A stretch of DNA of 18,748 nucleotides from Clostridia bacterium. Its GTDB lineage: Bacteria > Bacillota > Clostridia > Christensenellales > Aristaeellaceae. The position numbers and the translations under genes were made by a program. The stretch lies in NCBI GenBank assembly GCA_024404275.1, contig JAKSQG010000019.1, forward strand, positions 1 through 18,748, given 5' to 3'. The notes under the pieces are model-generated. The model was not told the origin of the DNA, made no database searches, and saw only the letters and a list, made by a program, of their open reading frames with translations. Shown piece by piece: positions 2,612 through 15,373 of this stretch (position 1 is its first letter; each line of letters starts with the position of its first letter).

Positions 2612-3565
2612 TCACCGCTCGCCGCGCAGACGGGCAAACAAGTCATCAAACAGCGCGTCGCGCTTGATATGATACACATAGCGCACGGGATGACGGCGCC
2701 CATCCTGTGCCCACCGGTGGTCATACTCCGGTATGGGCGCGGGAATCAGCTCATCCAGCATAAATTTTCCCGTCAGCCAGCCCACCGCCGTCACATCCCA
2801 GATGGGCTTGGACCAGCAGTGTACCTTGCTGCGTGCGGAACACTCGGAGACCGTATAATCATACAGATAATCGCACAGCGCGTTCTGCCCCTTCAGGTTC
2901 TCCCTCAGCTCGGGCTCCGTCGTGGCGAAAGCCGATACCACGCCATTGCAGGGCAGCAGTACCACCGCCGCGCCGCTGCGCAGCACCACGCGCCCCGCAG
3001 CCACATCCTGCATCATGTTGAACTCATGATTATCATGCCAGTGCAGGGCGTGCCCACCCAGCCAGACAATGACGATGCGGTCTCGGATCCGCGGCTCCAG
3101 CAGCAGCGCCGACGCCACATTGGTGATGGCAGCGATGGCGATCACATACAGCGGCTTTTCCGGCGTATACTGCATGGCTCTTGCCGCAAGGTCCCGTGCA
3201 GCAGGAGAATCCACCGCCGTTTTTTCATCCGGCAGATAGTCGGGCGAGCCGTCAAACACATTTTCTTTCATATCCTCCCGGCCCATCAGGGTCAGGATAT
3301 GTTCAATTTCCGCCCGGCTTTTTTTCATGCCGATGGCCGGCGTTTCCGCCTTATCGTTGCCGAAGGGCGCTGCATAGATTGCCTGCAGGCAGATTTTCTC
3401 TTCCGACAAAAGCAGATAGGCCAAAGCGAACTGGTCGTCGATCTCGTTATAGGTATCGGTATCCAGTACCGCGTCCACCTTCCCCTGTGGTCTTTCAAGG
3501 CGGCGGAGCAGGGCGGCATTGTCGAATTCGCCCGGCTGTTCCATGTCAAAGAAAGCATATTTCAT
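2612..3565 (-). CDS. Inosine-uridine-preferring nucleoside hydrolase (IUNH) family protein
   Basis: N-terminal Asp cluster VLDTDTYNEIDDQFAL resembles the IUNH DxDxxxDD calcium/ribose-binding motif. Length is ~317 aa with family-like content throughout (IAIAAITNVA..., WDVTAV). I prefer the ATG at 3565 (MKYAFFDME), which has AGGGGA upstream. The upstream in-frame ATG at 3595 lies inside the predicted -10 box. Stop is TGA. Confidence 0.8.
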   Translation of the reverse strand: MKYAFFDMEQPGEFDNAALLRRLERPQGKVDAVLDTDTYNEIDDQFALAYLLLSEEKICLQAIYAAPFGNDKAETPAIGMKKSRAEIEHILTLMGREDMKENVFDGSPDYLPDEKTAVDSPAARDLAARAMQYTPEKPLYVIAIAAITNVASALLLEPRIRDRIVIVWLGGHALHWHDNHEFNMMQDVAAGRVVLRSGAAVVLLPCNGVVSAFATTEPELRENLKGQNALCDYLYDYTVSECSARSKVHCWSKPIWDVTAVGWLTGKFMLDELIPAPIPEYDHRWAQDGRRHPVRYVYHIKRDALFDDLFARLRGER

Positions 3566-3593
3566 ATCGGTCTCATCCCCTTTTTCTGCACGC

Positions 3594-3623
3594 ATTATAG
3601 CACGGCATTTCCGCCCCTGTCAA
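3594..3623 (-). promoter_or_regulatory. Sigma-70/SigA-type promoter for the nucleoside hydrolase gene
   Basis: On the minus strand: TTGACA (3623..3618), 18-nt spacer, TGcTATAAT extended -10 (TATAAT = 3599..3594). Confidence 0.65.
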
Positions 3624-3697: not shown

Positions 3698-4534
3698 ATG
3701 CTCAGGCGATGTATGGCGCTGCTGCTGATGCTTTTTTTGCTTCTGCCGCCCGCATTTGCAGAGGAAAAGCTGCCGCTCAGCGCCGTGAATGCCGATGATA
3801 CCTTTACGGTCTATCTCAAGCAGAAGTATCATGTCATTGCCGCCGACGGCGCCGACAAATACCTCTACCGTGTGCAGCAGGGCAGCTGCACGGATGGACG
3901 CTATTACTACATCATCAAAGAAAACCAAAAGGTGCACGACTGTTCCGTTTGGAAGCTTGACCTTGAAACTTGGGAACCGGTCGACATTGCCTTCTCCCTG
4001 CCGCTGGGGCACGGCAACGATATGACCTATAACCCCGTCACAAACGAGCTGCTGGCGGTACACTACAAGCCCGAAAGAAACCGCATCACACGCCTTGACC
4101 CCGATACACTGCAGGTGCTGGGCACGCTTGAAATGCCCTACGAAAGCTTCTGCATCGGCTATTGCCGTGAGAGGGATCAGTACATCATCGGCGTGGCGGA
4201 CACCTATCAGTTTTACATCACCGACAGCGAGTTTCATGTGCTGTCCTATCATTATGGGTTGGATACAGGACTCATCACCCAAGGCGTGGACTGTGACGAG
4301 AACTATATCTATTTTCCGATGAACAGCAAGGATAAAAAGACGGTGGTCATTCTGGTCTATGACTGGGACGGCAACTATGTCAACACGCTGAAGCTCGGTA
4401 TCTTCCGTGAAATTGAAAGCATGTCACATGACGGCGATACCTGGTACATTGCCTTCAACGATTTCGGCAGCTGGGTCTACACCGCCACCATGACCGAAAA
4501 AGAGGGCAAGACCGTTTATCCGTGGGAAAAATAA
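3698..4534 (+). CDS. Secreted hypothetical protein, paralog A (predicted repeat/beta-rich fold, unknown family)
   Basis: Only the 3' part of the 2480..4534 ORF is real, because the 5' part is antisense to the hydrolase gene. ATG at 3698 is preceded by GAGGTG. Signal peptide is MLRRCMALLLMLFLLLPPAFA/EE. It shares conserved blocks with the next gene: VQQGSxTDGxY, HGNDMTYNP, DPDTL, ITDxEF, DTGLxxQGVxCDxxYIYFP, VYDWxGNYVNT and EIES. Stop is TAA. Confidence 0.88.
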   Translation: MLRRCMALLLMLFLLLPPAFAEEKLPLSAVNADDTFTVYLKQKYHVIAADGADKYLYRVQQGSCTDGRYYYIIKENQKVHDCSVWKLDLETWEPVDIAFSLPLGHGNDMTYNPVTNELLAVHYKPERNRITRLDPDTLQVLGTLEMPYESFCIGYCRERDQYIIGVADTYQFYITDSEFHVLSYHYGLDTGLITQGVDCDENYIYFPMNSKDKKTVVILVYDWDGNYVNTLKLGIFREIESMSHDGDTWYIAFNDFGSWVYTATMTEKEGKTVYPWEK

Positions 4535-4549
4535 AGGAGGAAATGAAAC

Positions 4550-5353
4550 ATGAAAAAGTTGATCAGTCTGCTGCTTGTTCTTCTGCTGCTCTGCCCCGCC
4601 GTACTGGCGGAGGACACCCTGTTTGGCGTGATTGAGCCCGATGTCAATTACAAGATCACCCTGACCCGCAAGGCGGTGCTCAAGGGCGGCGATACCTTCA
4701 AGACCATGAACTACCACGTGCAGCAGGGCAGCGCCACCGACGGCACCTATGCCTATTTTGTGCTGGAGGATCAGCATCAGTCCCTCGGCTCCATCTGGAA
4801 GGTGGATATGAGCACCTGGAAGGTCGTCGACACCATGTACGACCTGCCCATTGATCACGGCAACGACATGACCTACAACCCCGGCAAGCATCAGCTGGTG
4901 GTGGTCAACAATAAGCCCCATTACAACACCCTCACCTTTATCGACCCCGATACGCTGACCATCATTGAGACCAAAAAGCTTACCGCCGACATGTATGCCA
5001 TCGCCTACAACCCCGCAAGCGACCGTTATGTCATCGGTCTGAGCGGCAGCTGGAACTTTATGATCACTGATGGTGAGTTCAACGTGCAGCACCTGTGCAT
5101 CGGCAAGGATACCGGTCTGGTCAAGCAGGGTGTGGAGTGTGATGACAGCTACATCTATTTCCCGCAGTGCAAGTCCGACAACAGCATCAACCAGTTGGTG
5201 GTGTATGACTGGGAAGGCAACTATGTCAACACCATCCGCGTTTCCGCCTATCAGGAAATCGAAAGCCTGTTCCACAATGAGAACGGTACCTACATCGCCT
5301 TCAACGCCAGCGGCAGCTCCATTTACGAAGCCAAGCTGAACATCATCGAATAA
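4550..5353 (+). CDS. Secreted hypothetical protein, paralog B
   Basis: AGGAGG at 4535..4540 lies 9 nt before the ATG at 4550. Signal peptide is MKKLISLLLVLLLLCPAVLA/ED. It is collinear with paralog A along its full length. Only 15 nt separate the two genes, so they form an operon. Stop is TAA. Confidence 0.9.
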   Translation: MKKLISLLLVLLLLCPAVLAEDTLFGVIEPDVNYKITLTRKAVLKGGDTFKTMNYHVQQGSATDGTYAYFVLEDQHQSLGSIWKVDMSTWKVVDTMYDLPIDHGNDMTYNPGKHQLVVVNNKPHYNTLTFIDPDTLTIIETKKLTADMYAIAYNPASDRYVIGLSGSWNFMITDGEFNVQHLCIGKDTGLVKQGVECDDSYIYFPQCKSDNSINQLVVYDWEGNYVNTIRVSAYQEIESLFHNENGTYIAFNASGSSIYEAKLNIIE

Positions 5354-5375
5354 CGGGAACACAATAAAACAGACA

Positions 5376-5423
5376 GGGAGGTCACACTTTTCGCAGCCGA
5401 AAAGCGTGACCTCCCCTTATTTT
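5376..5423. terminator. Bidirectional rho-independent terminator between convergent genes
   Basis: 18-bp stem with one mismatch: gggaggtcacacttttcg (5376..5393) pairs with cgaaaagcgtgacctccc (5398..5415), with a 4-nt loop cagc. It is followed by cttatttt on the + strand. The preceding aataaaaca gives a T-run when read on the - strand. Confidence 0.85.
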
Positions 5424-5432
5424 CACCGTATA

Positions 5433-7229
5433 TCAGATACCGTCAAACTGCGGGCTGACATAGACCTGGAAGAACTGAATGCCGTCCTTGCGGGAGGCTT
5501 CCAATTCAGGGTATTCCAGCTCCTCAATGACCGGCAGCCTGCCGTCACAATAGCAATTCAGCGTATAGCTGACGTCCTTCAATCTGCCCTTCACAGCACC
5601 ATAGCGCAGAGTGATATTCTCCCAGCCCAAACGCTTATAGGACGCCCACCACAGGGTGCGGTGTGCCTCTTCCAGCGCGTCATAAAGCTTTACCAAAGCG
5701 GGAATCTTTTCTTCCGCAATGCGGCGCAGGGCGGAAGCATCCTTTTTCTTATACGCCGCACGCAACTGAAGGATCAACTGCGCCTTCTCATATGCCACAC
5801 GGAACAGCGCCGCGCCGTAGCGGCAGCGGGGATCGTTCTCGCACAGTGCCATGCGCCGCAGACCTTCCGCGTACTGCTCCGCCGCCGCTGCCAGATTGGG
5901 CTGATGCGGCAGAAGCGGATACAGCAGATCACAATAGATCAGGCCTTTGCCTGTGCGGTCATCGGTCTCATCCTTGTAGAAGCAGCCGAAGCCCTCGTAC
6001 ACCTCCCACGGCAAGCCGGTCAGCGTTTCCGCCATATGACGGGCTTCGTCCATGTCATAATCTTCCCCGCGCCAGCAAGCCTCGGAAAACAGCGTCATCT
6101 GGCTCATGGCCAGAAAATAATCGGTCTCGGTGCCGTCATCGCCCCACATGGTAGCGATCGCCGTGCGTACACCATGGCGCGCACAGGCTTTCAGGGCGGG
6201 TACCATGGTGGCATCCGTGCGCTTGACCTGCGGCATAAAGCCGCTCCACGTCCATACGCCGCCGGCAAACACGGTATTCTCGCTCATGCGTTCATGCTCG
6301 GACAGCATGTGCTCGTACCAGCGGTCCTCCATGTGGTAGTAGTCCCAGTAGACCATATCCACGTCGGGCAATCCGGCGATCACGCTCTATGGCAGATGGG
6401 AATCCAGATCGTAATATTCGTTCTGCTCCGAGCCCAGGCGGAAGAACATATCGCTCCACATCATGGCGTGGAAATGATACTTTTCGCAAAGATCGACCAC
6501 GCGCTTCAGATGACGCTTAAGCAGCTCGTAGCGATCCACCACACCGTATTTGCGCAGGTAGCGGATAAGGCCCATGTTATGCGCCTCATCCATGCCGATG
6601 TGCAGACGATTGGTACGGAAGCATTCACGGATGATCTTGATCTCCGCCTCGATGAACCGGTAGGTCTCTTCCTCATCGGCCATCAGGCAGTCATCGGTAT
6701 CCTTCAGATGGGATACAGCCTTCCACTGCAAAAACTGCCCCAAATGCGCCAGCGTCTGGATCTGCGGCAGCAGTTCGACGCCAAGGCTTGCCGCGTAATC
6801 GTCCAGCTCCTTGAGCTCCTCCGCGGTGTAGCGGCCGCGCAGATGCCCGAAGTAGGGATATTCGGGCACCGTGTAGGTATCCTCCATATACATGACAAAC
6901 AGGTTCATGCCGAGGGCTGCCATGGCGGCGATGTACTTTTTGCAGGCAGCCATCGTCATCACCGCACCGCGTGAGCAATCGATGAAGGCACCGCAGGAAG
7001 CAATGTGCCGCGATTCCCGGATATGCAGCTCCGTTTTGCCGTCTGCAACGGCCTGAACGAGCAAGAACACACCGCGTGCGAGGGCGGTTTTGTCCTCGGC
7101 GGCGATGGAGGCCGTACTGCCGTTCCACTCAACGGTCAGCCCGGCGCCGTCACAGACATCGATATCAAACGGAAAGCGCTTTCCGACGGTGCTTTCCACC
7201 GTTTGGCGGATGAATTCCATCTGCTCCAT
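5433..7229 (-). pseudogene. GH20-like beta-N-acetylhexosaminidase family gene interrupted by a single in-frame TAG (6387..6389); pseudogene or recoded
   Basis: The track ORFs 6387..7244 and 5433..6383 are in the same frame (7244-6383=861=3x287). The junction reads ...EYYDLDSHLP-TAG-S-V-IAGLPDVDMVYWDYYH.... The N-terminal half has a TIM-barrel-like region with HIGMDEAH (GH20 H-x-G-x-D-E catalytic pair). The C-terminal half continues the barrel (WGDDG) and adds a helical tail. The likely start is the ATG at 7229, 7 nt after GAGGAG, which overlaps the end of the ThuA-like gene. Final stop is TGA. Confidence 0.7.
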
Positions 7230-7233
7230 ATGA

Positions 7234-7947
7234 TTACTCCTCACCGATCTTTTTGATATGGGGAGAATACAGCTTTTCCACGCGATACATGGGCTTCACC
7301 CATTCCACGGCGTTCCTGATCACCGTCTGCACGTTGGGATCGTAGAAGATGGGGAAGGTCTCGTGACCGGGCTGGAAATAGAAGATGCGGCCGTTTTCAC
7401 GATGGAAGGTGCAGGCGGAGCGGAACACCTCACCGCCCTCATACCAGCCGATCATCAGCACCTGATCGGGCTCGGGCAGGGTGAAGGGCTCGCTGTAGGT
7501 CTCCTCATGCTCCAGCTCAAAATAGCGTCCGATGCCGCGCATGATGGGATGGGAGGGGCAGATGTTCCACAGGCGTTCCATATCGCCGTCCTCACGCCAG
7601 CTGACATCGCAGGAGGTGCCCATCAGCAGACGGAAGGGCTTGGAATGATGACCGCTGTGCAGGAAGATGATGCCCATGCCCTTCAGCACAGCGTTTCTGA
7701 CACGCTGCGCCACCTCGTCGGGCACGGCGGAATGGCGCAGATGACCCCACCAGAGCATGACATCGGTATCGTCCAGCACCTCATCGGTGATCTCTTCGAT
7801 GGTTTCCAGCGTAAAGCAGCGAACTTCGTTTTCATCCGAACGCAGGAAATCAGCCAGAGCGCCATGAATGCCCTGCGGATATACCTCGCGGACTTTTTCT
7901 TCGGTCTGCTCGTGATAAAATTCATTATAAATGGTAATTTTCGTCAT
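7234..7947 (-). CDS. ThuA-domain (trehalose-utilisation ThuA-like) protein
   Basis: Full-length family pattern: ITIYNEFYHE, VYPQGIHGALA, DVMLWWGH, IFLHSGHHSKPF, LMGTSC, WRE, ERLW, HPI, FRSACTF and IFYFQPGHETFP. GAAGGAG lies 10 nt upstream of the ATG. Stop is TAA. Confidence 0.88.
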   Translation of the reverse strand: MTKITIYNEFYHEQTEEKVREVYPQGIHGALADFLRSDENEVRCFTLETIEEITDEVLDDTDVMLWWGHLRHSAVPDEVAQRVRNAVLKGMGIIFLHSGHHSKPFRLLMGTSCDVSWREDGDMERLWNICPSHPIMRGIGRYFELEHEETYSEPFTLPEPDQVLMIGWYEGGEVFRSACTFHRENGRIFYFQPGHETFPIFYDPNVQTVIRNAVEWVKPMYRVEKLYSPHIKKIGEE

Positions 7948-7973
7948 TGTCTTCAGGCTCCTTCACTCATTGA

Positions 7974-9035
7974 TCAAAGACGGATCTCATGACCTTCCGC
8001 GGCGGAACGGTACATGGCTTCCAGAATGCGTACCATATTGATGCCCTGCTGCGGTACAAACATAGGTTCAGCGCCATGCAGCACCACATCGGTAAAATGC
8101 TTCAGGTTGGCGGCATGCTGCGGCATGCTCTTTTTGTTATCAATATTCGGCAGGATATCCGCCGTGCGGCCGTATTCCTCGGTATAGATGGCCAGCCGGT
8201 CACTGTCAGAGGACCATTCCGCGCCGGAGCGGGTGCCGCGCAGCTCAAAGAAACGGCGTTCCTTTTCAATGTTGGAAGCCCAGGAGAATTCGATTTGCAG
8301 CGAGGCACCGTTTTCAAAGCGGATGAAGCCCATGGCCAGATCTTCCACATCAAAGACACCGTTCAGGTCAACATCGCGTCCATGCGCCTCCACCATGCGG
8401 TTATCGGCAAACTTGGTATAGGTGCAGCCGGACACCGCCACGGGTCTGGGATTGCCCATCAGCCACATGGTCAGGTCGATCATATGCACACCCAGATCGA
8501 TCAGCGGACCGCCGCCGCTCTGCTCCTTGTTGGTGAACCAGCCGCCGCGCCCGGGAATGCCCCTGCGCCGCTGCCAGCCGCAGCGCGCCGCGTAGATTTC
8601 ACCCATACGACCATCATCAATATACTGCTTGATAAAAGCGGAAGTAGGCAGATAGCGGTTGTTGCGCATGACCATCAGCGTTTTGCCGCTCTTTTCAGCC
8701 GCCTCACGCATTCGCTCCGCCTCGGCGGCGGATACGGCATCCGGCTTTTCGCAGAACACATGCAAGCCGTGCTCCAAAGCATACACGGCAATGACCGAAT
8801 GCAGGTAGTTGGGGGTGCAGATATCCACCGCATCCAGCTGTTCCTTTTCGATCATTTCCTGATAATCAGTATAGATGGGCACATTGCCGTACAGCTCCGA
8901 CTGGACCCGGGCTCTTTCGGTGTTGACATCGCACAAAGCGACCACTTCGGCTTCTTCGATCAGCTGCCAGCCGGGCAAATGCGCCTTGCGGGCAATGTTG
9001 CCCGTTCCGATCACACCGATCCGCAATTTTTCCAC
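7974..9035 (-). CDS. Gfo/Idh/MocA-family NAD(P)-dependent oxidoreductase (ThuB-like partner of the ThuA-like gene)
   Basis: N-terminal Rossmann motif IGVIGTGNIA, followed by the EKP motif (FCEKPDA) and GGGPLIDLGVHMIDL. GTG start at 9035 with AGGGGA 9 nt upstream. The gap to the ThuA-like gene is 26 nt. Stop is TGA. Confidence 0.88.
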   Translation of the reverse strand: MEKLRIGVIGTGNIARKAHLPGWQLIEEAEVVALCDVNTERARVQSELYGNVPIYTDYQEMIEKEQLDAVDICTPNYLHSVIAVYALEHGLHVFCEKPDAVSAAEAERMREAAEKSGKTLMVMRNNRYLPTSAFIKQYIDDGRMGEIYAARCGWQRRRGIPGRGGWFTNKEQSGGGPLIDLGVHMIDLTMWLMGNPRPVAVSGCTYTKFADNRMVEAHGRDVDLNGVFDVEDLAMGFIRFENGASLQIEFSWASNIEKERRFFELRGTRSGAEWSSDSDRLAIYTEEYGRTADILPNIDNKKSMPQHAANLKHFTDVVLHGAEPMFVPQQGINMVRILEAMYRSAAEGHEIRL

Positions 9036-9076
9036 AGTTTATTTTCCCCTTTCTGATGGGTTGTCTTCCAATCAAC

Positions 9077-9105
9077 ATTATAAGCCGCGGGGCGGCAAAT
9101 TTCAA
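9077..9105 (-). promoter_or_regulatory. SigA-type promoter of the oxidoreductase/ThuA-like/GH20 operon
   Basis: On the minus strand: TTGAAA (9105..9100), 17 nt of spacer, TATAAT (9082..9077). Confidence 0.75.
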
Positions 9106-9126
9106 TACAGTACGGCCGCATGTGCT

Positions 9127-9163
9127 ATACAAAAGCCACCCCTTCTTATACAGAAGGGGCGGC
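9127..9163 (-). terminator. Rho-independent terminator of the C_GCAxxG_C_C/FMN-bind gene
   Basis: 12-bp stem with one mismatch (9135..9146 pairs with 9152..9163) and a 5-nt loop. On the minus strand it is followed by TTTTGTAT. It starts 18 nt downstream of the TAA at 9182..9184. Confidence 0.8.
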
Positions 9164-9181
9164 CAAAGATGCGTGAATGGA

Positions 9182-10108
9182 TTACTTGATCTTGCTCAGG
9201 GCGTCCTTGACAGCAGCCATGATGGCTTCGGAGGACTCGGTGGCATGCGCCACGGCGTCAACATCCGCGGACTGCGCATCGATGATGGCCTGAGGAATGG
9301 TGTTGAAGGCGGGATCGCGGAGACCGGGGGTCTCGTTGCTTTCCAGAATGTCGATCTTGGCGATCTTGTCGCCGTCCATGGTGACCTTGACCTTCATTTC
9401 GCCGCGGCTGGTGGAGCTGGTGCCGATGTACTCATTGGCGGCAGCTTCGACGGGAGCGGCTTCGACAACGGGAGCAGCCTCTTCGTAGCCGTACAGCACG
9501 TTGAGCAGCTCGATGACCTTGACCACGCACTCGCCGGTCAGGGCAGCGCAGCGGGCCTTGCGGGCGTCATCGCCCATCTTGAGGTTATTGGCTTCCATGA
9601 ACTTGCTGACGGAAGCGGAGCAGGTGATGTCGCCGGCCACGGTGGTCACAGCGGAATACACGGGCTGATAGGTGGGGAAGGGCTCGTTGCGATACCAGTC
9701 AAACAGCTGATCACGAAGCTTGGAGGCATCGGCGGGCTTGCAGAACAGACCGATCATCATGCAGGAGCCGGCAAGGGCGCCGCAGAAGGTCTGGCAGCCG
9801 AAGCCGCCGCCGCCCAGCGTCAGCATCTGGCAGGGGATCATGTTGTAGGGATAGCCGTATTCTTCGGCCAGCAGCTCGATGATACCGGCGATGGAACCGG
9901 CGCCGCAGCCGCCCACTTCAAACCAGCGCTTATAGGTATATTCCAGCGCCTTCTGCTTGTCGATGGGATGCCACACCCAAGGATGCTCGGGAACATCGGG
10001 AGTTTCGGCCATGGCGGGAACAACGCCCATCATCGCGGCGCCGGCAGCACCGGCAGCGCCCATACCCAGGGCCTTCAAAAATTGTCTGCGATCCATTTCT
10101 TTATTCAT
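9182..10108 (-). CDS. Tat-signal C_GCAxxG_C_C-family redox protein fused to a C-terminal FMN-binding (FMN_bind) domain
   Basis: Twin-arginine signal MDRRQFLKALGMGAAGAAGAAMMGVVPAMA. C_GCAxxG_C_C-type motifs GGCGAGSIAG and FCGALAGSCMMIG. An AAPVVEAAPVEAAA linker. FMN_bind-like tail (MKVKVTMDGDKIAKIDILESNETPG...DVDAVAHATESSEAIMAAVKDAL). ATG at 10108 with GGAGG 9 nt upstream; the track start at 10117 is a TTG inside the spacer. Stop is TAA. Confidence 0.82.
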   Translation of the reverse strand: MNKEMDRRQFLKALGMGAAGAAGAAMMGVVPAMAETPDVPEHPWVWHPIDKQKALEYTYKRWFEVGGCGAGSIAGIIELLAEEYGYPYNMIPCQMLTLGGGGFGCQTFCGALAGSCMMIGLFCKPADASKLRDQLFDWYRNEPFPTYQPVYSAVTTVAGDITCSASVSKFMEANNLKMGDDARKARCAALTGECVVKVIELLNVLYGYEEAAPVVEAAPVEAAANEYIGTSSTSRGEMKVKVTMDGDKIAKIDILESNETPGLRDPAFNTIPQAIIDAQSADVDAVAHATESSEAIMAAVKDALSKIK

Positions 10109-10159
10109 GGGTTTCAACCTCCGTTTTTATGTGTTATCTGGTAACACATTTTCCATATA

Positions 10160-10188
10160 ATTTTATCATGCTCCTTCGGACCCGTCAA
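10160..10188 (-). promoter_or_regulatory. SigA-type promoter for the C_GCAxxG_C_C/FMN-bind gene
   Basis: On the minus strand: TTGACG (10188..10183), 17 nt of spacer, TAAAAT (10165..10160). Confidence 0.65.
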
Positions 10189-10255
10189 CCCTTTTATCCG
10201 CCTTTTTGCGGATAAATCATTTTTTACCTCACTTTGCTCTGCATGATGCATATCA

Positions 10256-10284
10256 TTGAAAAACACAGGGGAAAATGCTATAAT
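10256..10284 (+). promoter_or_regulatory. SigA-type promoter for the small DUF6273-like gene (and probably rpiB and the permease)
   Basis: TTGAAA (10256..10261), 17 nt of spacer, TGcTATAAT (TATAAT = 10279..10284). Confidence 0.75.
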
Positions 10285-10315
10285 GGCAAAGCAACTTGGA
10301 ACGGAGGAACAAGAA

Positions 10316-11104
10316 ATGAAAAATTTCCTCGCAATGCTTCTGGCGCTGATGCTTCTGCTCTCCCCGGCTGCCCTGGCTGAGAACTGGGTATGTCCGCGGG
10401 ACAGCAGTGAAAACAGCGGCAACTTTTGTCCCCAGTGCGGCATCAGCCGCGAAGAGGCCTTGAAAGAAAGCGGCGCCTATGTTCAGCCCGGCGACAGCAT
10501 CACCTTCGGCCGCTATACACAGACCGCCGAAGGCCGTGACATTACGCCGCTGGAGTGGCAGGTGCTGGCAGTAGACAACGGCAAAGCGCTGCTCATCACG
10601 CGCGATATCATCGACTGCCTGCCCTATAACGGTGCCTATGAAGCCGCTGACTGGGAGCACAGCCTGCTGCGCTATCTGCTGAACGGCAGTTTCCTTGATG
10701 TGGCTTTCACATAGTCGGAAAGAGAAGCCATTGTCATGACCGAGGTGGACAACAGCGCCGCCCAAGGCTATCCCGGATACACACAGGAAGCCGGCAGCAA
10801 TACGATGGACAAGGTCTTCCTGCTGAGCTATCAGGAAGCCTGGACGTATTTTGCCGACAACGCCGCCCGCAAGTGCGTGCCCACCGGTTTTGCCATCACC
10901 CGCGGCGCCAATTTCTATAATGGCACCAACGAGGATTATCTTCTGGACCGCAGCGGCTGCGGCTGGTGGTGGCTGCGTTCCCCCGGCATCGATACCCGCT
11001 ATGCCATGTATGTCCGCTATGACGGCAACCGCAGTTCCAATCGTGTGGACGGTACCATCATCGGTCTGCGTCCCGCCCTGTGGATCGACCTGAACAGTCT
11101 GTAA
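10316..11104 (+). pseudogene. Secreted DUF6273-like protein gene interrupted by a single in-frame TAG (10712..10714); pseudogene or recoded
   Basis: The track ORFs 10256..10714 and 10736..11104 share a frame. The junction reads GSFLDVAFT-TAG-SEREAIVMTEVDNS and aligns residue-for-residue with NEFINAAFT-N-AEQNAILMTDCDNS of the 1..2417 protein. ATG at 10316 has GGAGG 8 nt upstream. Signal peptide is MKNFLAMLLALMLLLSPAALA/EN. Downstream motifs are KVFLLS, CGWWWLRS and RPALWI. Final stop is TAA. Confidence 0.8.
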
Positions 11105-11596: not shown

Positions 11597-12703
11597 ATGT
11601 TGAAGGCTTTTGTCAAAAAGAACGCCGTACTCTGCATTGCCTTTGTGCTGGCGGTGTTATCCTCGCTGATCATTCCCCCGGATGCCGGATGGGCCGGGTA
11701 TTATGATGTCAAAACGCTTTGCTGCCTGTTCGGCACGCTGGCGGTGGTGTGCGCGCTGAAGAATATCCGCTTCTTTTACATTCTGGCGCAGCGCATCGTG
11801 GTGTTTGCGGGCAACGCCCGCACGGCGGCGCTGCTGCTCATCGCCATCACCTTTATCGGCTCCATGCTGATCGCCAACGACATGGCGCTGATCACCTTTT
11901 TGCCGCTGGGCTATTATGTATTCAGCGTCATGGGCAATAAAAAAGAGATGGCCACCGTGTTCATTCTTCAGAACATCGCGGCCAATCTCGGCGGCATGCT
12001 GACGCCCTTTGGCAATCCGCAGAACCTGTACCTGTATTCGCATTACAGCATCGCCAATGACCGTTTCATGGAGATCATGTTTCCGCCGTTCATCGTATCC
12101 ATCTCGCTGGTAGCGCTGTGCTGTCTGCTCATCCGTCCAAGGAGGCTGCGTCTGGCAGTGACACAGAACCCGCCGCTGCCCAAACTGCGCACGGCGTATT
12201 ATCTGTTTCTCTTTGCCCTGACCATTCTGATGGTCTTCCGCGTGCTGCCGCCGCTGTGGGTCATCGCCGCGGTGGTCATCTCCCTGCTGGTGCTGGACCC
12301 CAAGGCGCTGCGCCGTGTGGATTACGGTCTGCTGCTCACCTTCGTGTGCTTTTTCACCTTTGCGGGCAACATGGGCAGGGTGGAAGCAGTGCGCTCCTTC
12401 TTTTCCTCCCTGTTGGAAAAGAGCACGCTGCTGACCGCCGTGCTCTCCTGTCAGGTGATCTCCAATGTGCCCAGCGCCATCCTGCTGTCGCAGTTCAGCG
12501 AGACCTGGCCTGCCCTGCTGGTGGGCGTCAACATCGGCGGCACGGGCACGCTCATTGCCTCACTCGCCTCGCTCATCACCTTCCGCGAATATACAGCGCA
12601 CTGCCCCGGCGAATCCAAAGCCTACATTCTGCGCTTTTCAGCCTTCAATTTCGGCTTTCTCGCCATCCTGACGCTGTTCTCGCTGCTGGTCCTGCATTAT
12701 TGA
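11597..12703 (+). CDS. ArsB/NhaD/CitMHS-superfamily anion permease (YbiR-like), polytopic membrane protein
   Basis: Hydrophobic throughout, with multiple predicted TM segments. The TPFGNPQNLYLY motif is typical of this permease superfamily. The start is uncertain: ATG 11597 (MLKAFVKKN) versus the in-frame GTG at 11570, which overlaps the end of rpiB. Neither has an ideally spaced SD. Stop is TGA. Confidence 0.75.
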   Translation: MLKAFVKKNAVLCIAFVLAVLSSLIIPPDAGWAGYYDVKTLCCLFGTLAVVCALKNIRFFYILAQRIVVFAGNARTAALLLIAITFIGSMLIANDMALITFLPLGYYVFSVMGNKKEMATVFILQNIAANLGGMLTPFGNPQNLYLYSHYSIANDRFMEIMFPPFIVSISLVALCCLLIRPRRLRLAVTQNPPLPKLRTAYYLFLFALTILMVFRVLPPLWVIAAVVISLLVLDPKALRRVDYGLLLTFVCFFTFAGNMGRVEAVRSFFSSLLEKSTLLTAVLSCQVISNVPSAILLSQFSETWPALLVGVNIGGTGTLIASLASLITFREYTAHCPGESKAYILRFSAFNFGFLAILTLFSLLVLHY

Positions 12704-13789: not shown

Positions 13790-15373
13790 TCAGATGCCCA
13801 GCAGATCGCTGAATACCTTCAGCGCGCCGTCGGTCTCATGCGCCAGCACACGCTTGGCCAGCACCTTGCCCAGCTGCACGCCTTCCTGATCGAAGCTGTT
13901 CACATTCCACACAAAGCCCTGGAACATGACCTTGTTTTCAAAGTGCGCCAGCAGCGCGCCCACCGTTTCGGGGGTGACGGCGTCGGCGATGATGATGGAG
14001 GAGGGACGGCCGCCCGCGAAGCTCTTGTTGGGGTTGGCATCCTCTTTGCCGCAGGCAAAAGCCATGATCTGCGCAGCCACATTGGCGCACAGCTTCTGCT
14101 GGCTGGTGCTGCCCTGAATGTCAACATCCATGCCGCACTGATTCTGGCGGTAGCCCACAAACTGCAGCGGCACGATATCGGTGCCCTGATGCAGCAGCTG
14201 ATAGAAGGAGTGCTGACCGTTGGTGCCGGGCTCACCGAAGATGATGGGGCCGGTCACATAATCAACGGGAGCGCCGTCACGGTTGACGGATTTGCCGTTG
14301 CTTTCCATATCCAGCTGCTGCAGATGCGCCGGGAAGCGGCTGAGCGCCTGGCTGTAGGGCAGCACGGCGGTGGAGGGCCAGCCCTGCACATTGCGCTCGT
14401 ACACGCCGATGAGGGCATCCAGCATGTCGGCATTCTTGAGGGGATCTTTTTCCATGGCCAGACGGTCTTCCTCGGCGGCGCCGTTCAGGAAACGGGCAAA
14501 CACATCGGGACCAAAGGCCAGGGACAGGATCACGCCGCCCACGCAGCTGGAGGAGGAATAACGGCCGCCGATATAGTCATCCATGAAGAAGGCGCCCAGA
14601 TAGTCGCTGCTCTTGGCCAGCGGAGAGGTCTCGCTGGTGACGGCGACCATGTGCTTGGCGGGGTCAAGTCCCTGCTTTTTGAGGGCATCCTTGACGAAGG
14701 ATTCGTTGGTCAGCGTTTCCAGCGTGGTGCCGGACTTGCTGACCAGCACAAACAGCGCACGGCTGACATCGATGCTGTTCAGCACCGCAGCGGCATCATC
14801 GGGGTCGACGTTGCTGATGAACTTGGCTTCCATCTTGAAGGTGTTGTTCTTCTTGGCCCAGTTTTCCAGCGCCAGATAGATGGCACGGGGACCCAGGTCG
14901 CTGCCGCCGATACCGATCTGCACGGCGGTGGTAAAGGTCTCGCCCTTTTCGTTGACGATCTGGCCGTTATGGACCTTTTCGGCAAAGTCAGCGGCTTTCT
15001 TCTGCTCGCCGACATAGAATTCACGCTTGTTGACGCCATCGGCAATGACTTCGCCCGCCAGCTGACCGCGGGTCAGCTGATGCAGCACCAGACGCTTTTC
15101 ACCGGTGTTGATGACAGCGCCGGACAGCAGAGCCTGATACTTCTCGCTCAGCTGCATTTCCTCCGCCAGCTTCTTGAGGGCGGCAAGCACCTCGTCATCC
15201 ACCGCCTTGGCGGCATAGTTATAGGTCATGCCGGCAGCCATGGGCAGGCTGTATTCCTTGGCGCGGCGGGCGCCGTTTTCACCGGCCATGGCTTCCTTCA
15301 GGCAAACTTTGTCTTTCAGCTGTTTCAGCTCGCCGTAAGCGGCGGCTTTGTCCAGGTTCTTCCATTCAATCAT
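13790..15373 (-). CDS. pgi: Glucose-6-phosphate isomerase
   Basis: Both PGI signatures are present (DDYIGGRYSSSS and NSFDQEGVQLGK), plus IGIGGSDLGPR and SKSGTTLET. ATG at 15373 (MIEWKNL) has GGAGG 8 nt upstream. The track start at 15388 is a TTG within the SD. Stop is TGA. Confidence 0.95.
   Translation of the reverse strand: MIEWKNLDKAAAYGELKQLKDKVCLKEAMAGENGARRAKEYSLPMAAGMTYNYAAKAVDDEVLAALKKLAEEMQLSEKYQALLSGAVINTGEKRLVLHQLTRGQLAGEVIADGVNKREFYVGEQKKAADFAEKVHNGQIVNEKGETFTTAVQIGIGGSDLGPRAIYLALENWAKKNNTFKMEAKFISNVDPDDAAAVLNSIDVSRALFVLVSKSGTTLETLTNESFVKDALKKQGLDPAKHMVAVTSETSPLAKSSDYLGAFFMDDYIGGRYSSSSCVGGVILSLAFGPDVFARFLNGAAEEDRLAMEKDPLKNADMLDALIGVYERNVQGWPSTAVLPYSQALSRFPAHLQQLDMESNGKSVNRDGAPVDYVTGPIIFGEPGTNGQHSFYQLLHQGTDIVPLQFVGYRQNQCGMDVDIQGSTSQQKLCANVAAQIMAFACGKEDANPNKSFAGGRPSSIIIADAVTPETVGALLAHFENKVMFQGFVWNVNSFDQEGVQLGKVLAKRVLAHETDGALKVFSDLLGI

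Follow-up and report, generated by a model that had tools for sequence, protein, structure and literature searches.

Has a gene that is cut by one in-frame TAG decayed, or is the TAG within it translated? The question is raised by an 18,748 nucleotide stretch of DNA from a Clostridia bacterium of the family Aristaeellaceae (GenBank assembly GCA_024404275.1, contig JAKSQG010000019.1, here called the window), in which two genes are interrupted in this way, one for a GH20 beta-N-acetylhexosaminidase and one for a secreted protein with a DUF6273 domain. The genes and codons concerned are the following.

7229->5433, minus strand: GH20 beta-N-acetylhexosaminidase gene (GcnA/GH20C-like), 598 codons when read through the TAG, with Pfam PF00728 and PF18088
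6389..6387, minus strand: in-frame TAG at GH20 codon 281, within the catalytic domain, in the context CTG CCA TAG AGC
6297..6299, minus strand: GH20 codon 311, GAG in the window and TAG in the other haplotype (L085, L173)
10316..11104, plus strand: secreted DUF6273-domain protein gene, 262 codons when read through the TAG
10712..10714, plus strand: in-frame TAG at DUF6273 codon 133 (144 if counted from ATG 10283), in the context TTC ACA TAG TCG

An original prediction, made from the window alone, took two independent pseudogenes as the default explanation whilst proposing that amber read-through, suppression or reassignment was worth testing. Comparative evidence from relatives rejects the default, and it is the translation of TAG that their sequences support. 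It is probable that UAG is translated and does not terminate in this uncultured gut Clostridia lineage, to which belong the window's organism with the metagenome-assembled genome (MAG) GCA_024500545.1, its strains from a number of metagenomes and, as a sister species, GCA_045599485.1, and both of the apparently broken genes would then be intact and full-length. That at least two species-level lineages translate TAG is, from the same comparison, very likely.

The relatives' syntenic contigs were retrieved via exact-protein look-ups, with all retrieved contigs of the lineage being 18.7 kb or shorter and together amounting to ~20 kb of distinct sequence. Five independent datasets are represented, the window itself, Logan SRR21150819, Logan SRR27361835, ENA ERZ27247129 and NCBI GCA_045599485.1, and the contigs are listed here by source and by their identity to the window.

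L001, L173, L180: ENA ERZ27247129, 96-98% identity
L002: Logan SRR21150819, 95% identity
L085, L174, L088: Logan SRR27361835, 93-99% identity
L086, L087: NCBI GCA_045599485.1, the sister species, 87-92% identity
L089-L092, L175-L179: several shorter contigs, 95-99% identity

Among ~24,000 aligned codons there are five distinct in-frame TAG sites with nine occurrences, which fall in 4 of ~18 gene families and make TAG ~0.04% of codons. At each site some strains carry TAG and others a sense codon.

GH20 codon 281: TAG in the window, L002 and L180; GAC in L085 and L173; GAT in L086
GH20 codon 311: TAG in L085 and L173; GAG in the window, L002, L086 and L180
4892..4894, plus strand, codon 115 of the secreted protein gene 4550-5353: TAG in L002 and L085; CAG (Gln) in the window, L086 and L180
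2726..2728, minus strand, nucleoside hydrolase codon 290: TAG in L086; GAG (Glu) in the window, L085 and L180
DUF6273 codon 133: TAG in the window only; GAC in L173; GCG in L174 and L175; GAT in L086

The sense codons that alternate with TAG are CAG, GAG (twice), GAC/GAT (twice) and GCG, and three of the five TAG sites are common to diverged strains. It had been claimed from the window that each of the two broken genes has exactly one lesion and that this lesion is a TAG, which holds, with no other in-frame stop in the 16 genes, and in the surveyed genes of any strain there is likewise no in-frame TAA or TGA and no frameshift. Those open reading frames (ORFs) of the lineage that end in TAG all run on in frame into the remainder of the same protein, whilst the true terminators of three genes alternate between TAA and TGA from strain to strain and are never TAG. 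A pattern of this kind might be suspected of being an artefact of sequencing, assembly or binning, for instance through systematic miscalls or a contaminating TAG-recoded phage, as all of the data are metagenomic and TAG-recoded phages are common in guts. The same TAGs recur, however, across projects and assemblers (NCBI MAGs, ENA MEGAHIT contigs and Logan), and the affected genes lie on the chromosome in synteny with groES-groEL, pgi, mutY and rpiB, a synteny that is conserved in the sister species, so that an artefact is extremely improbable.

Within the GH20 gene the TAGs of different strains are mutually exclusive, with one haplotype carrying TAG-281 and GAG-311 and the other GAC-281 and TAG-311, and the metagenome ERZ27247129 holds both of them (L180 and L173). 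The sister species has an intact GH20 of 598 amino acids with 83.5% nucleotide identity (L086), a copy that surfaced via locus and cluster look-ups only. A protein search found no full-length GH20 with more than 64% identity to that of the window and returned a 316 amino acid GH20 fragment of 97% identity from another sample, a GH20 scan of metagenome contigs found no member of the lineage (best match 60%), and neither ThuA nor the N-terminal GH20 fragment, taken from its GTG start, had an exact match. The public annotation of the NCBI MAG GCA_024500545.1 by the Prokaryotic Genome Annotation Pipeline (PGAP, table 11) cuts the gene into MCQ2453393.1, a "family 20 glycosylhydrolase" of 280 amino acids, and MCQ2453392.1, a "hypothetical protein" of 316 amino acids, and protein clusters contain further fragment pairs of this lineage, as separate clusters, from other samples. 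In several assemblies the contigs break directly beside GH20 codons 281/311.

For both proteins homology runs across the TAG. GH20 residues 34-574 align unbroken with the solved structures 2EPK and 5A69, and its homologues number 3416 at E<=1e-20, the best ones listed being ~600 amino acids long and covering 84-100% of the query. In the DUF6273 protein the match to Pfam PF19789 is a single stretch, residues 99-269, that spans the TAG, and full-length orthologues of 262 amino acids are present in L173, L174 and L086. The good expression signals that had been reported at both genes were also found, as promoter-like and Shine-Dalgarno sites (GAGGAG 7 nt upstream of the GH20 ATG, and GGAGGA preceding ATG 10316 of the DUF6273 gene) and as a hairpin terminator after the full-length GH20 gene, with no comparable terminator-like site following the GH20 TAG.

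9077..9105, minus strand: promoter-like site TTGAAA-17-TATAAT, 11/12, ahead of the operon that ends in GH20 (Gfo/Idh/MocA - ThuA - GH20)
10256..10284, plus strand: promoter-like site upstream of the DUF6273 gene, TTGAAA-17-TATAAT and an extended TG
5375..5416, minus strand: strong intrinsic-terminator-like hairpin of 19 pairs and a T run, directly after the full-length GH20 stop TGA 5433-5435

Purifying selection is equally strong on either side of the TAGs. Between the window and L002, both of which have TAG-281, the ratio of non-synonymous to synonymous substitution rates (dN/dS, or omega) in GH20 is 0.125 upstream and 0.096 downstream of the TAG, with the downstream part having 28.5 synonymous versus 10.5 non-synonymous changes (p=6e-12 against neutrality). 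After the other TAGs omega is 0.01-0.26, upstream it is 0.09-0.19, and in the 37 codons that follow the nucleoside hydrolase TAG the changes are 19 synonymous versus 3 non-synonymous. The GH20 genes of the window and L002 have 73 mismatches over 1797 nt (~4%, one per 25 nt), and the differences nearest to TAG-281 are 28 nt upstream and 5 nt downstream of it. As these flanking differences are so close, the allele appears to be about as old as the strain split (synonymous divergence, dS, ~0.14) and not a recently transferred tract. It is apparent that in-frame TAGs arise repeatedly in this lineage and persist in genes that are under purifying selection.

These observations bear on the simplest alternative, that the TAGs are ordinary nonsense alleles of dispensable genes which segregate among strains, the downstream halves possibly being re-initiated at a GTG or ATG. 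This is the default for a MAG, none of the affected genes is essential, the nonsense codon that can arise most often here is TAG (56-63% of single-step nonsense opportunities by the codon usage of the window), and there is a GTG two codons past the GH20 TAG and an ATG seven codons past the DUF6273 TAG. The putative restart codons are, however, without a Shine-Dalgarno site, downstream constraint equals that upstream even when two TAG-bearing strains are compared, and the age of the TAG-281 allele is also not what the alternative leads one to expect. Five events in 4 of ~18 genes of close relatives with no frameshift, TAA or TGA are unlike gene decay, and the TAG and sense alleles differ by 2-3 adjacent substitutions in which the context has adapted. 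The alternative would further have to place two different split points in one domain, as GH20 codons 281 and 311 both fall in the catalytic domain, a (beta/alpha)8 (triosephosphate isomerase, TIM) barrel; two interruption points in one such domain make functional splitting of the gene a poor fit, yet are trivial for a sense codon. Ordinary nonsense alleles are therefore an improbable explanation.

Outside the lineage, in two unrelated NCBI MAGs (L003 and L004, 9000-11020), a GH20 homologue that is 58% identical carries a frameshift and not a stop, which is an ordinary lesion or an assembly error and forms a contrast to the TAG-only pattern. A truncated GH20 homologue from another MAG (P0123) was considered as a further TAG case and was discarded, its lesion being a frameshift. 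The apparent TAG read-through in control loci L095 (2416-4026) and L096 (2288-3898), whose GH20 is 54% identical, was rejected too, as there the TAG lies between an M20 peptidase gene and the next gene in the same frame; these are two adjacent genes with a genuine TAG stop, and relatives this far removed thus use TAG as a real terminator. Of the outgroup loci with a GH20 gene, the two closest (L181, L003) have TAG terminators at 0/17 and 0/14 of their genes, and the nearer of them, L181, in which GH20 is 64% identical, also has no internal TAG.

If TAG is translated, it may be asked whether a signal beside the codon is responsible. Both window TAGs had been described as lying in CATAG and being followed by a Ser codon (AGC, TCG), and this can be read in the sequence, but as support for recoding it did not survive. 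Over the five TAG sites CATAG is found at three and a Ser codon comes next at two, with the Ser being due to chance and rejected as a context signal. At the three CATAG sites the preceding codon ends in A, versus C or G in the non-TAG alleles (CCG/CCC to CCA, TCC to TCA, ACC to ACA), and NCA codons are only 1.1% of the codons in the window. The change of C to A in the preceding codon occurs because a C-ending codon followed by TAG would make CTAG, a tetramer that is avoided. Amongst the 130 TAGs on both window strands none is preceded by C and only four by T, and CTAG is found 0 times in the window versus 8.6 expected, 0 times in 55 kb of the relatives (L001-L002, L085-L087, L173-L180), and is strongly depleted in control GC-rich Clostridia loci too. 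TTAG is also rare, with 2 versus 11.5 expected. CATAG as a recoding signal is rejected, as avoidance of CTAG explains it, and the TAG sites behave like ordinary coding sequence.

Programmed, context-dependent read-through was considered as well. The base 3' of TAG at the five sites is A, C, C, T and T and the codons that follow differ, and in the 100 nt after both window TAGs no stimulatory RNA structure, of the type of the pyrrolysine insertion sequence (PYLIS) or of read-through signals, was found against shuffles (z = -1.0, -0.85). With neither a conserved 3' context nor an unusual RNA fold this candidate was rejected, and the lack of both suggests that TAG is decoded by a factor acting in trans and not through a recoding signal at the site.

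The pattern within the window, by itself, is no more than would be expected by chance and becomes significant only with the comparative data. The 15 complete coding sequence termini of the window are indeed 8 TAA, 7 TGA and 0 TAG, as had been counted, but the absence of TAG terminators carries no weight as evidence, since TAG stops are rare in such genomes. This baseline comes from control loci of 52-63% GC. A scan of genome contigs with PGI, a protein too conserved to single out the lineage, gave, among the matches listed, 80 loci at 76-83% identity, none of them syntenic or of this lineage, and these 80 loci were used as standard-code controls. With a gene picker filtered on GC3/GC2, which recovers the real genes of the window, TAG terminates 14/290 genes (4.8%) in the control GC-rich Clostridia loci, and the probability of 0/15 is then ~0.48. 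An 11-18% baseline obtained with a length-only ORF picker was set aside, as that picker chose wrong-strand ORFs on the window itself. TAG is rare as a terminator in GC-rich gut and rumen Clostridia generally, as seen in control loci L005-L172. That a short window has zero TAG stops therefore means little, and that TAG is never a terminator is uninformative; for the lineage as a whole TAG ends 0/18 gene families, which at the 4.8% baseline has p ~0.4. Nor is it striking that both lesions in the window are TAG, the probability of this being ~0.35 given the nonsense opportunities set by its codon usage (CAG 188, GAG 213, AAG 221, TAC/TAT 220, TGG 76).

Which amino acid would be inserted can be approached from the columns of homologues at the TAG sites.

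GH20-281: Q 95, D 14, E 6, P 4, R 1 (120 homologues)
GH20-311: E 57, Q 45, G 9, L 5, A 4
Secreted protein codon 115: Q 45, E 26, R 25, K 20, L 13 (160 homologous stretches)
DUF6273-133: variable, S 42, E 17, A 16, P 11, D 9, K 6, T 5, Q 4

A product over the columns in the style of Codetta, over four sites only, gives Q 0.84 and E 0.16, with all others <0.001. The columns lean towards Gln as the most likely residue with Glu second, and this should be read as a lean and not as a result. A dedicated tRNA charged with a standard amino acid, more likely Gln than Glu, has a good chance of being the decoder.

The columns also bear on a different possibility, that UAG is translated as pyrrolysine (Pyl) by way of pylTSBCD, which would make this lineage a bacterial counterpart of archaeal Code 34 with near-neutral internal TAGs. 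The resemblance is close in that Code 34 archaea have strain- or genus-specific singleton internal TAGs, two-sided homology, few or no TAG stops and a low-TAG background (bioRxiv 10.1101/2024.09.30.615893), and Pyl systems are known in some Bacillota and gut bacteria (PMC7593587). Code 34 has not been observed in bacteria, however (bioRxiv 10.1101/2024.09.30.615893), and neither the window nor the contigs of the relatives (~20 kb of distinct sequence; L085-L087, L173-L180) have a pyl gene or a gene for a methylamine methyltransferase, the gene content looking saccharolytic. The TAG sites fall in Q/E/D columns with no K in either GH20 column, although the mutational proximity of CAG and GAG to TAG could also yield this. 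Pyrrolysine is thus an unlikely reading.

The way in which a standard amino acid might come to be inserted can be sketched from known components. A tRNA with a CUA anticodon, one anticodon change away from tRNA-Gln(CUG) or tRNA-Glu(CUC), would decode UAG, whilst release factor 2 (RF2) would terminate at UAA and UGA. Release factor 1 (RF1) would thereby be dispensable and could be lost or weakened, and a background of ~5% TAG terminators would have made the change cheap. A more complete version, in which UAG is reassigned genome-wide to Gln/Glu with a dedicated tRNA-CUA, no functional RF1 and RF2 with UAA/UGA only, is possible, though its chances seem somewhat less than even; such a full reassignment could have begun with a suppressor tRNA of phage type at a time when TAG terminators were already rare.

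Translation could in principle also occur with no dedicated tRNA. With RF1 lost or crippled, UAG might be read by near-cognate tRNAs (Gln, Tyr, Lys, Trp) and the residue inserted would vary, as in laboratory E. coli from which RF1 has been deleted. This would account just as well for internal TAGs that are tolerated and for termination at TAA/TGA only, and no tRNA-CUA is seen in the window or the eight relatives' loci. Near-cognate read-through is inefficient and stalls ribosomes in RF1-deficient E. coli. With ~10% of the sampled genes having a TAG that persists over dS ~0.14 under strong constraint, the data argue for efficient decoding, and near-cognate read-through is accordingly quite improbable.

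Several points weigh against the translation of UAG by a dedicated tRNA and should be set beside the evidence for it. The original prediction had noted that the decoding components are not visible in the window, and this remains so, with no tRNA gene and no pyl gene found there and no tRNA gene in the eight relatives' loci; prfA and prfB, which encode RF1 and RF2, are on none of the retrieved contigs of the lineage (<=18.7 kb). The zero TAG terminators, being uninformative at the 4.8% baseline, do not support full reassignment. All five TAG sites are in accessory or secreted-protein genes and none is in GroEL, GroES, PGI, MutY or RpiB, and the probability that all five lesions are TAG, 0.6^5 ~0.08, is weak evidence alone. 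Of the alternatives within the lineage one is Q and the rest are mostly acidic (E, E, D, D/A), and so Glu fits about as well as Gln. The metagenomic origin of every sequence counts here also.

How the lineage stands among known systems may now be considered. The code changes known in bacteria are all UGA reassignments in the Codetta survey (PMC8629427), and a 2024 preprint gives three codes in Bacteria, with TAG as Pyl being the archaeal Code 34 that is not observed in bacteria (bioRxiv 10.1101/2024.09.30.615893). In the open-access and bioRxiv literature no report was found of chromosomal amber reassignment in bacteria.

The gut phages of code 15 (crAss-like, Lak and others), in which TAG is read as Gln by a suppressor tRNA-CUA, are alike in codon, probably in amino acid, and in habitat, and in having in-frame TAGs scattered in otherwise normal genes whilst TAA and TGA are kept as terminators. 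Here, however, the TAGs are in bacterial chromosomal genes beside groESL, pgi and mutY and not in late-infection phage genes, TAG is rare amongst the codons, and the contigs examined contain no suppressor tRNA. Archaeal Code 34 is similar in that TAG is a rare chromosomal sense codon, with lineage-specific near-neutral singletons, a low TAG-terminator background and split annotations, but it belongs to methylotrophic methanogens with pylTSBCD, whereas the contigs of the present lineage show no sign of methylamine metabolism and the columns favour Gln/Glu. The bacterial codes 4 (UGA to Trp in Mycoplasmatota, some endosymbionts and Eggerthellaceae) and 25 (UGA to Gly in Gracilibacteria and Absconditabacteria) share the lineage-wide sense reading of a stop and show up as split conserved genes under table 11; they differ in involving UGA and the loss of RF2, where UAG and presumably RF1 would be concerned here, and in that this is a free-living-type gut Clostridia genome of 57% GC and not a reduced AT-rich one. 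The proposed logic, a tRNA-CUA derived from tRNA-Gln that reads UAG with RF2 sufficing for UAA/UGA, is that of supE strains and of the RF1-free E. coli C321.deltaA, but those are laboratory mutants and constructs, whilst here the state appears to be naturally fixed in at least two species-level lineages. The lineage belongs on these grounds with stop-codon reassignment or suppression, with a codon that would be new for bacteria, and is placed outside code 15 (there is no phage context) and, provisionally, outside Code 34.

The remainder of the window, with 57% GC and 16 genes including partial ones at its ends, provides the setting for the two interrupted genes.

1-2417: partial coiled-coil/DUF6273 protein gene, with long Ala/Glu-rich repeats and the DUF6273 domain at its end
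2612-3595, minus strand: nucleoside hydrolase gene
3698-4534 and 4550-5353: two tandem secreted paralogues without a Pfam family
9035 down to 5433, minus strand: operon of Gfo/Idh/MocA oxidoreductase, ThuA and GH20 hexosaminidase
Also: C_GCAxxG/FMN-binding protein gene
Further genes: rpiB, CitMHS transporter, mutY, pgi, groES, groEL and a partial permease

The coiled-coil gene is a second DUF6273 paralogue within the same 18 kb, and the contig and the relative's contig L085 both stop within its repeats, probably an assembly break. The two secreted paralogues have the motif HGNDMTYNP in common and 1087 relatives in a representative library (E<=0.001), of which many form the C-terminal domain of a far larger protein, and look like a domain family that has yet to be described. 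Convergent transcription brings mutY and the CitMHS transporter gene into a 66 nt overlap at their 3' ends (12638-12703), and in L087, from the sister species, GGA stands in place of the mutY stop codon and the protein is longer. PGI (13790-15373) has 76-83% identity to the PGIs of many Lachnospiraceae and rumen Clostridiales, whilst its neighbours have no close relatives there and no synteny, which would fit either unusual conservation or horizontal exchange. An Rfam search of the window gave no match.

For the organism itself, low use of TAG as a terminator has been proposed as a precondition for archaeal Code 34 (bioRxiv 10.1101/2024.09.30.615893), and the rare TAG terminators of GC-rich Clostridia may be a permissive background for amber reassignment in the same way. 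Calling genes with table 11 mis-splits about one in ten genes in these MAGs, on a small sample, and so skews annotation, pseudogene counts and estimates of completeness. The gut abounds in TAG-recoded phages, and the logic of phage and host would be altered by a host in which TAG is already translated. A bacterium that naturally translates UAG would be a natural experiment on losing RF1-dependent termination in a normal-sized GC-rich genome, and the lineage would be a possible source of orthogonal tRNA/synthetase pairs. If true, full reassignment would be a further natural bacterial code, and apparently the first in which a chromosomal amber codon has been reassigned.

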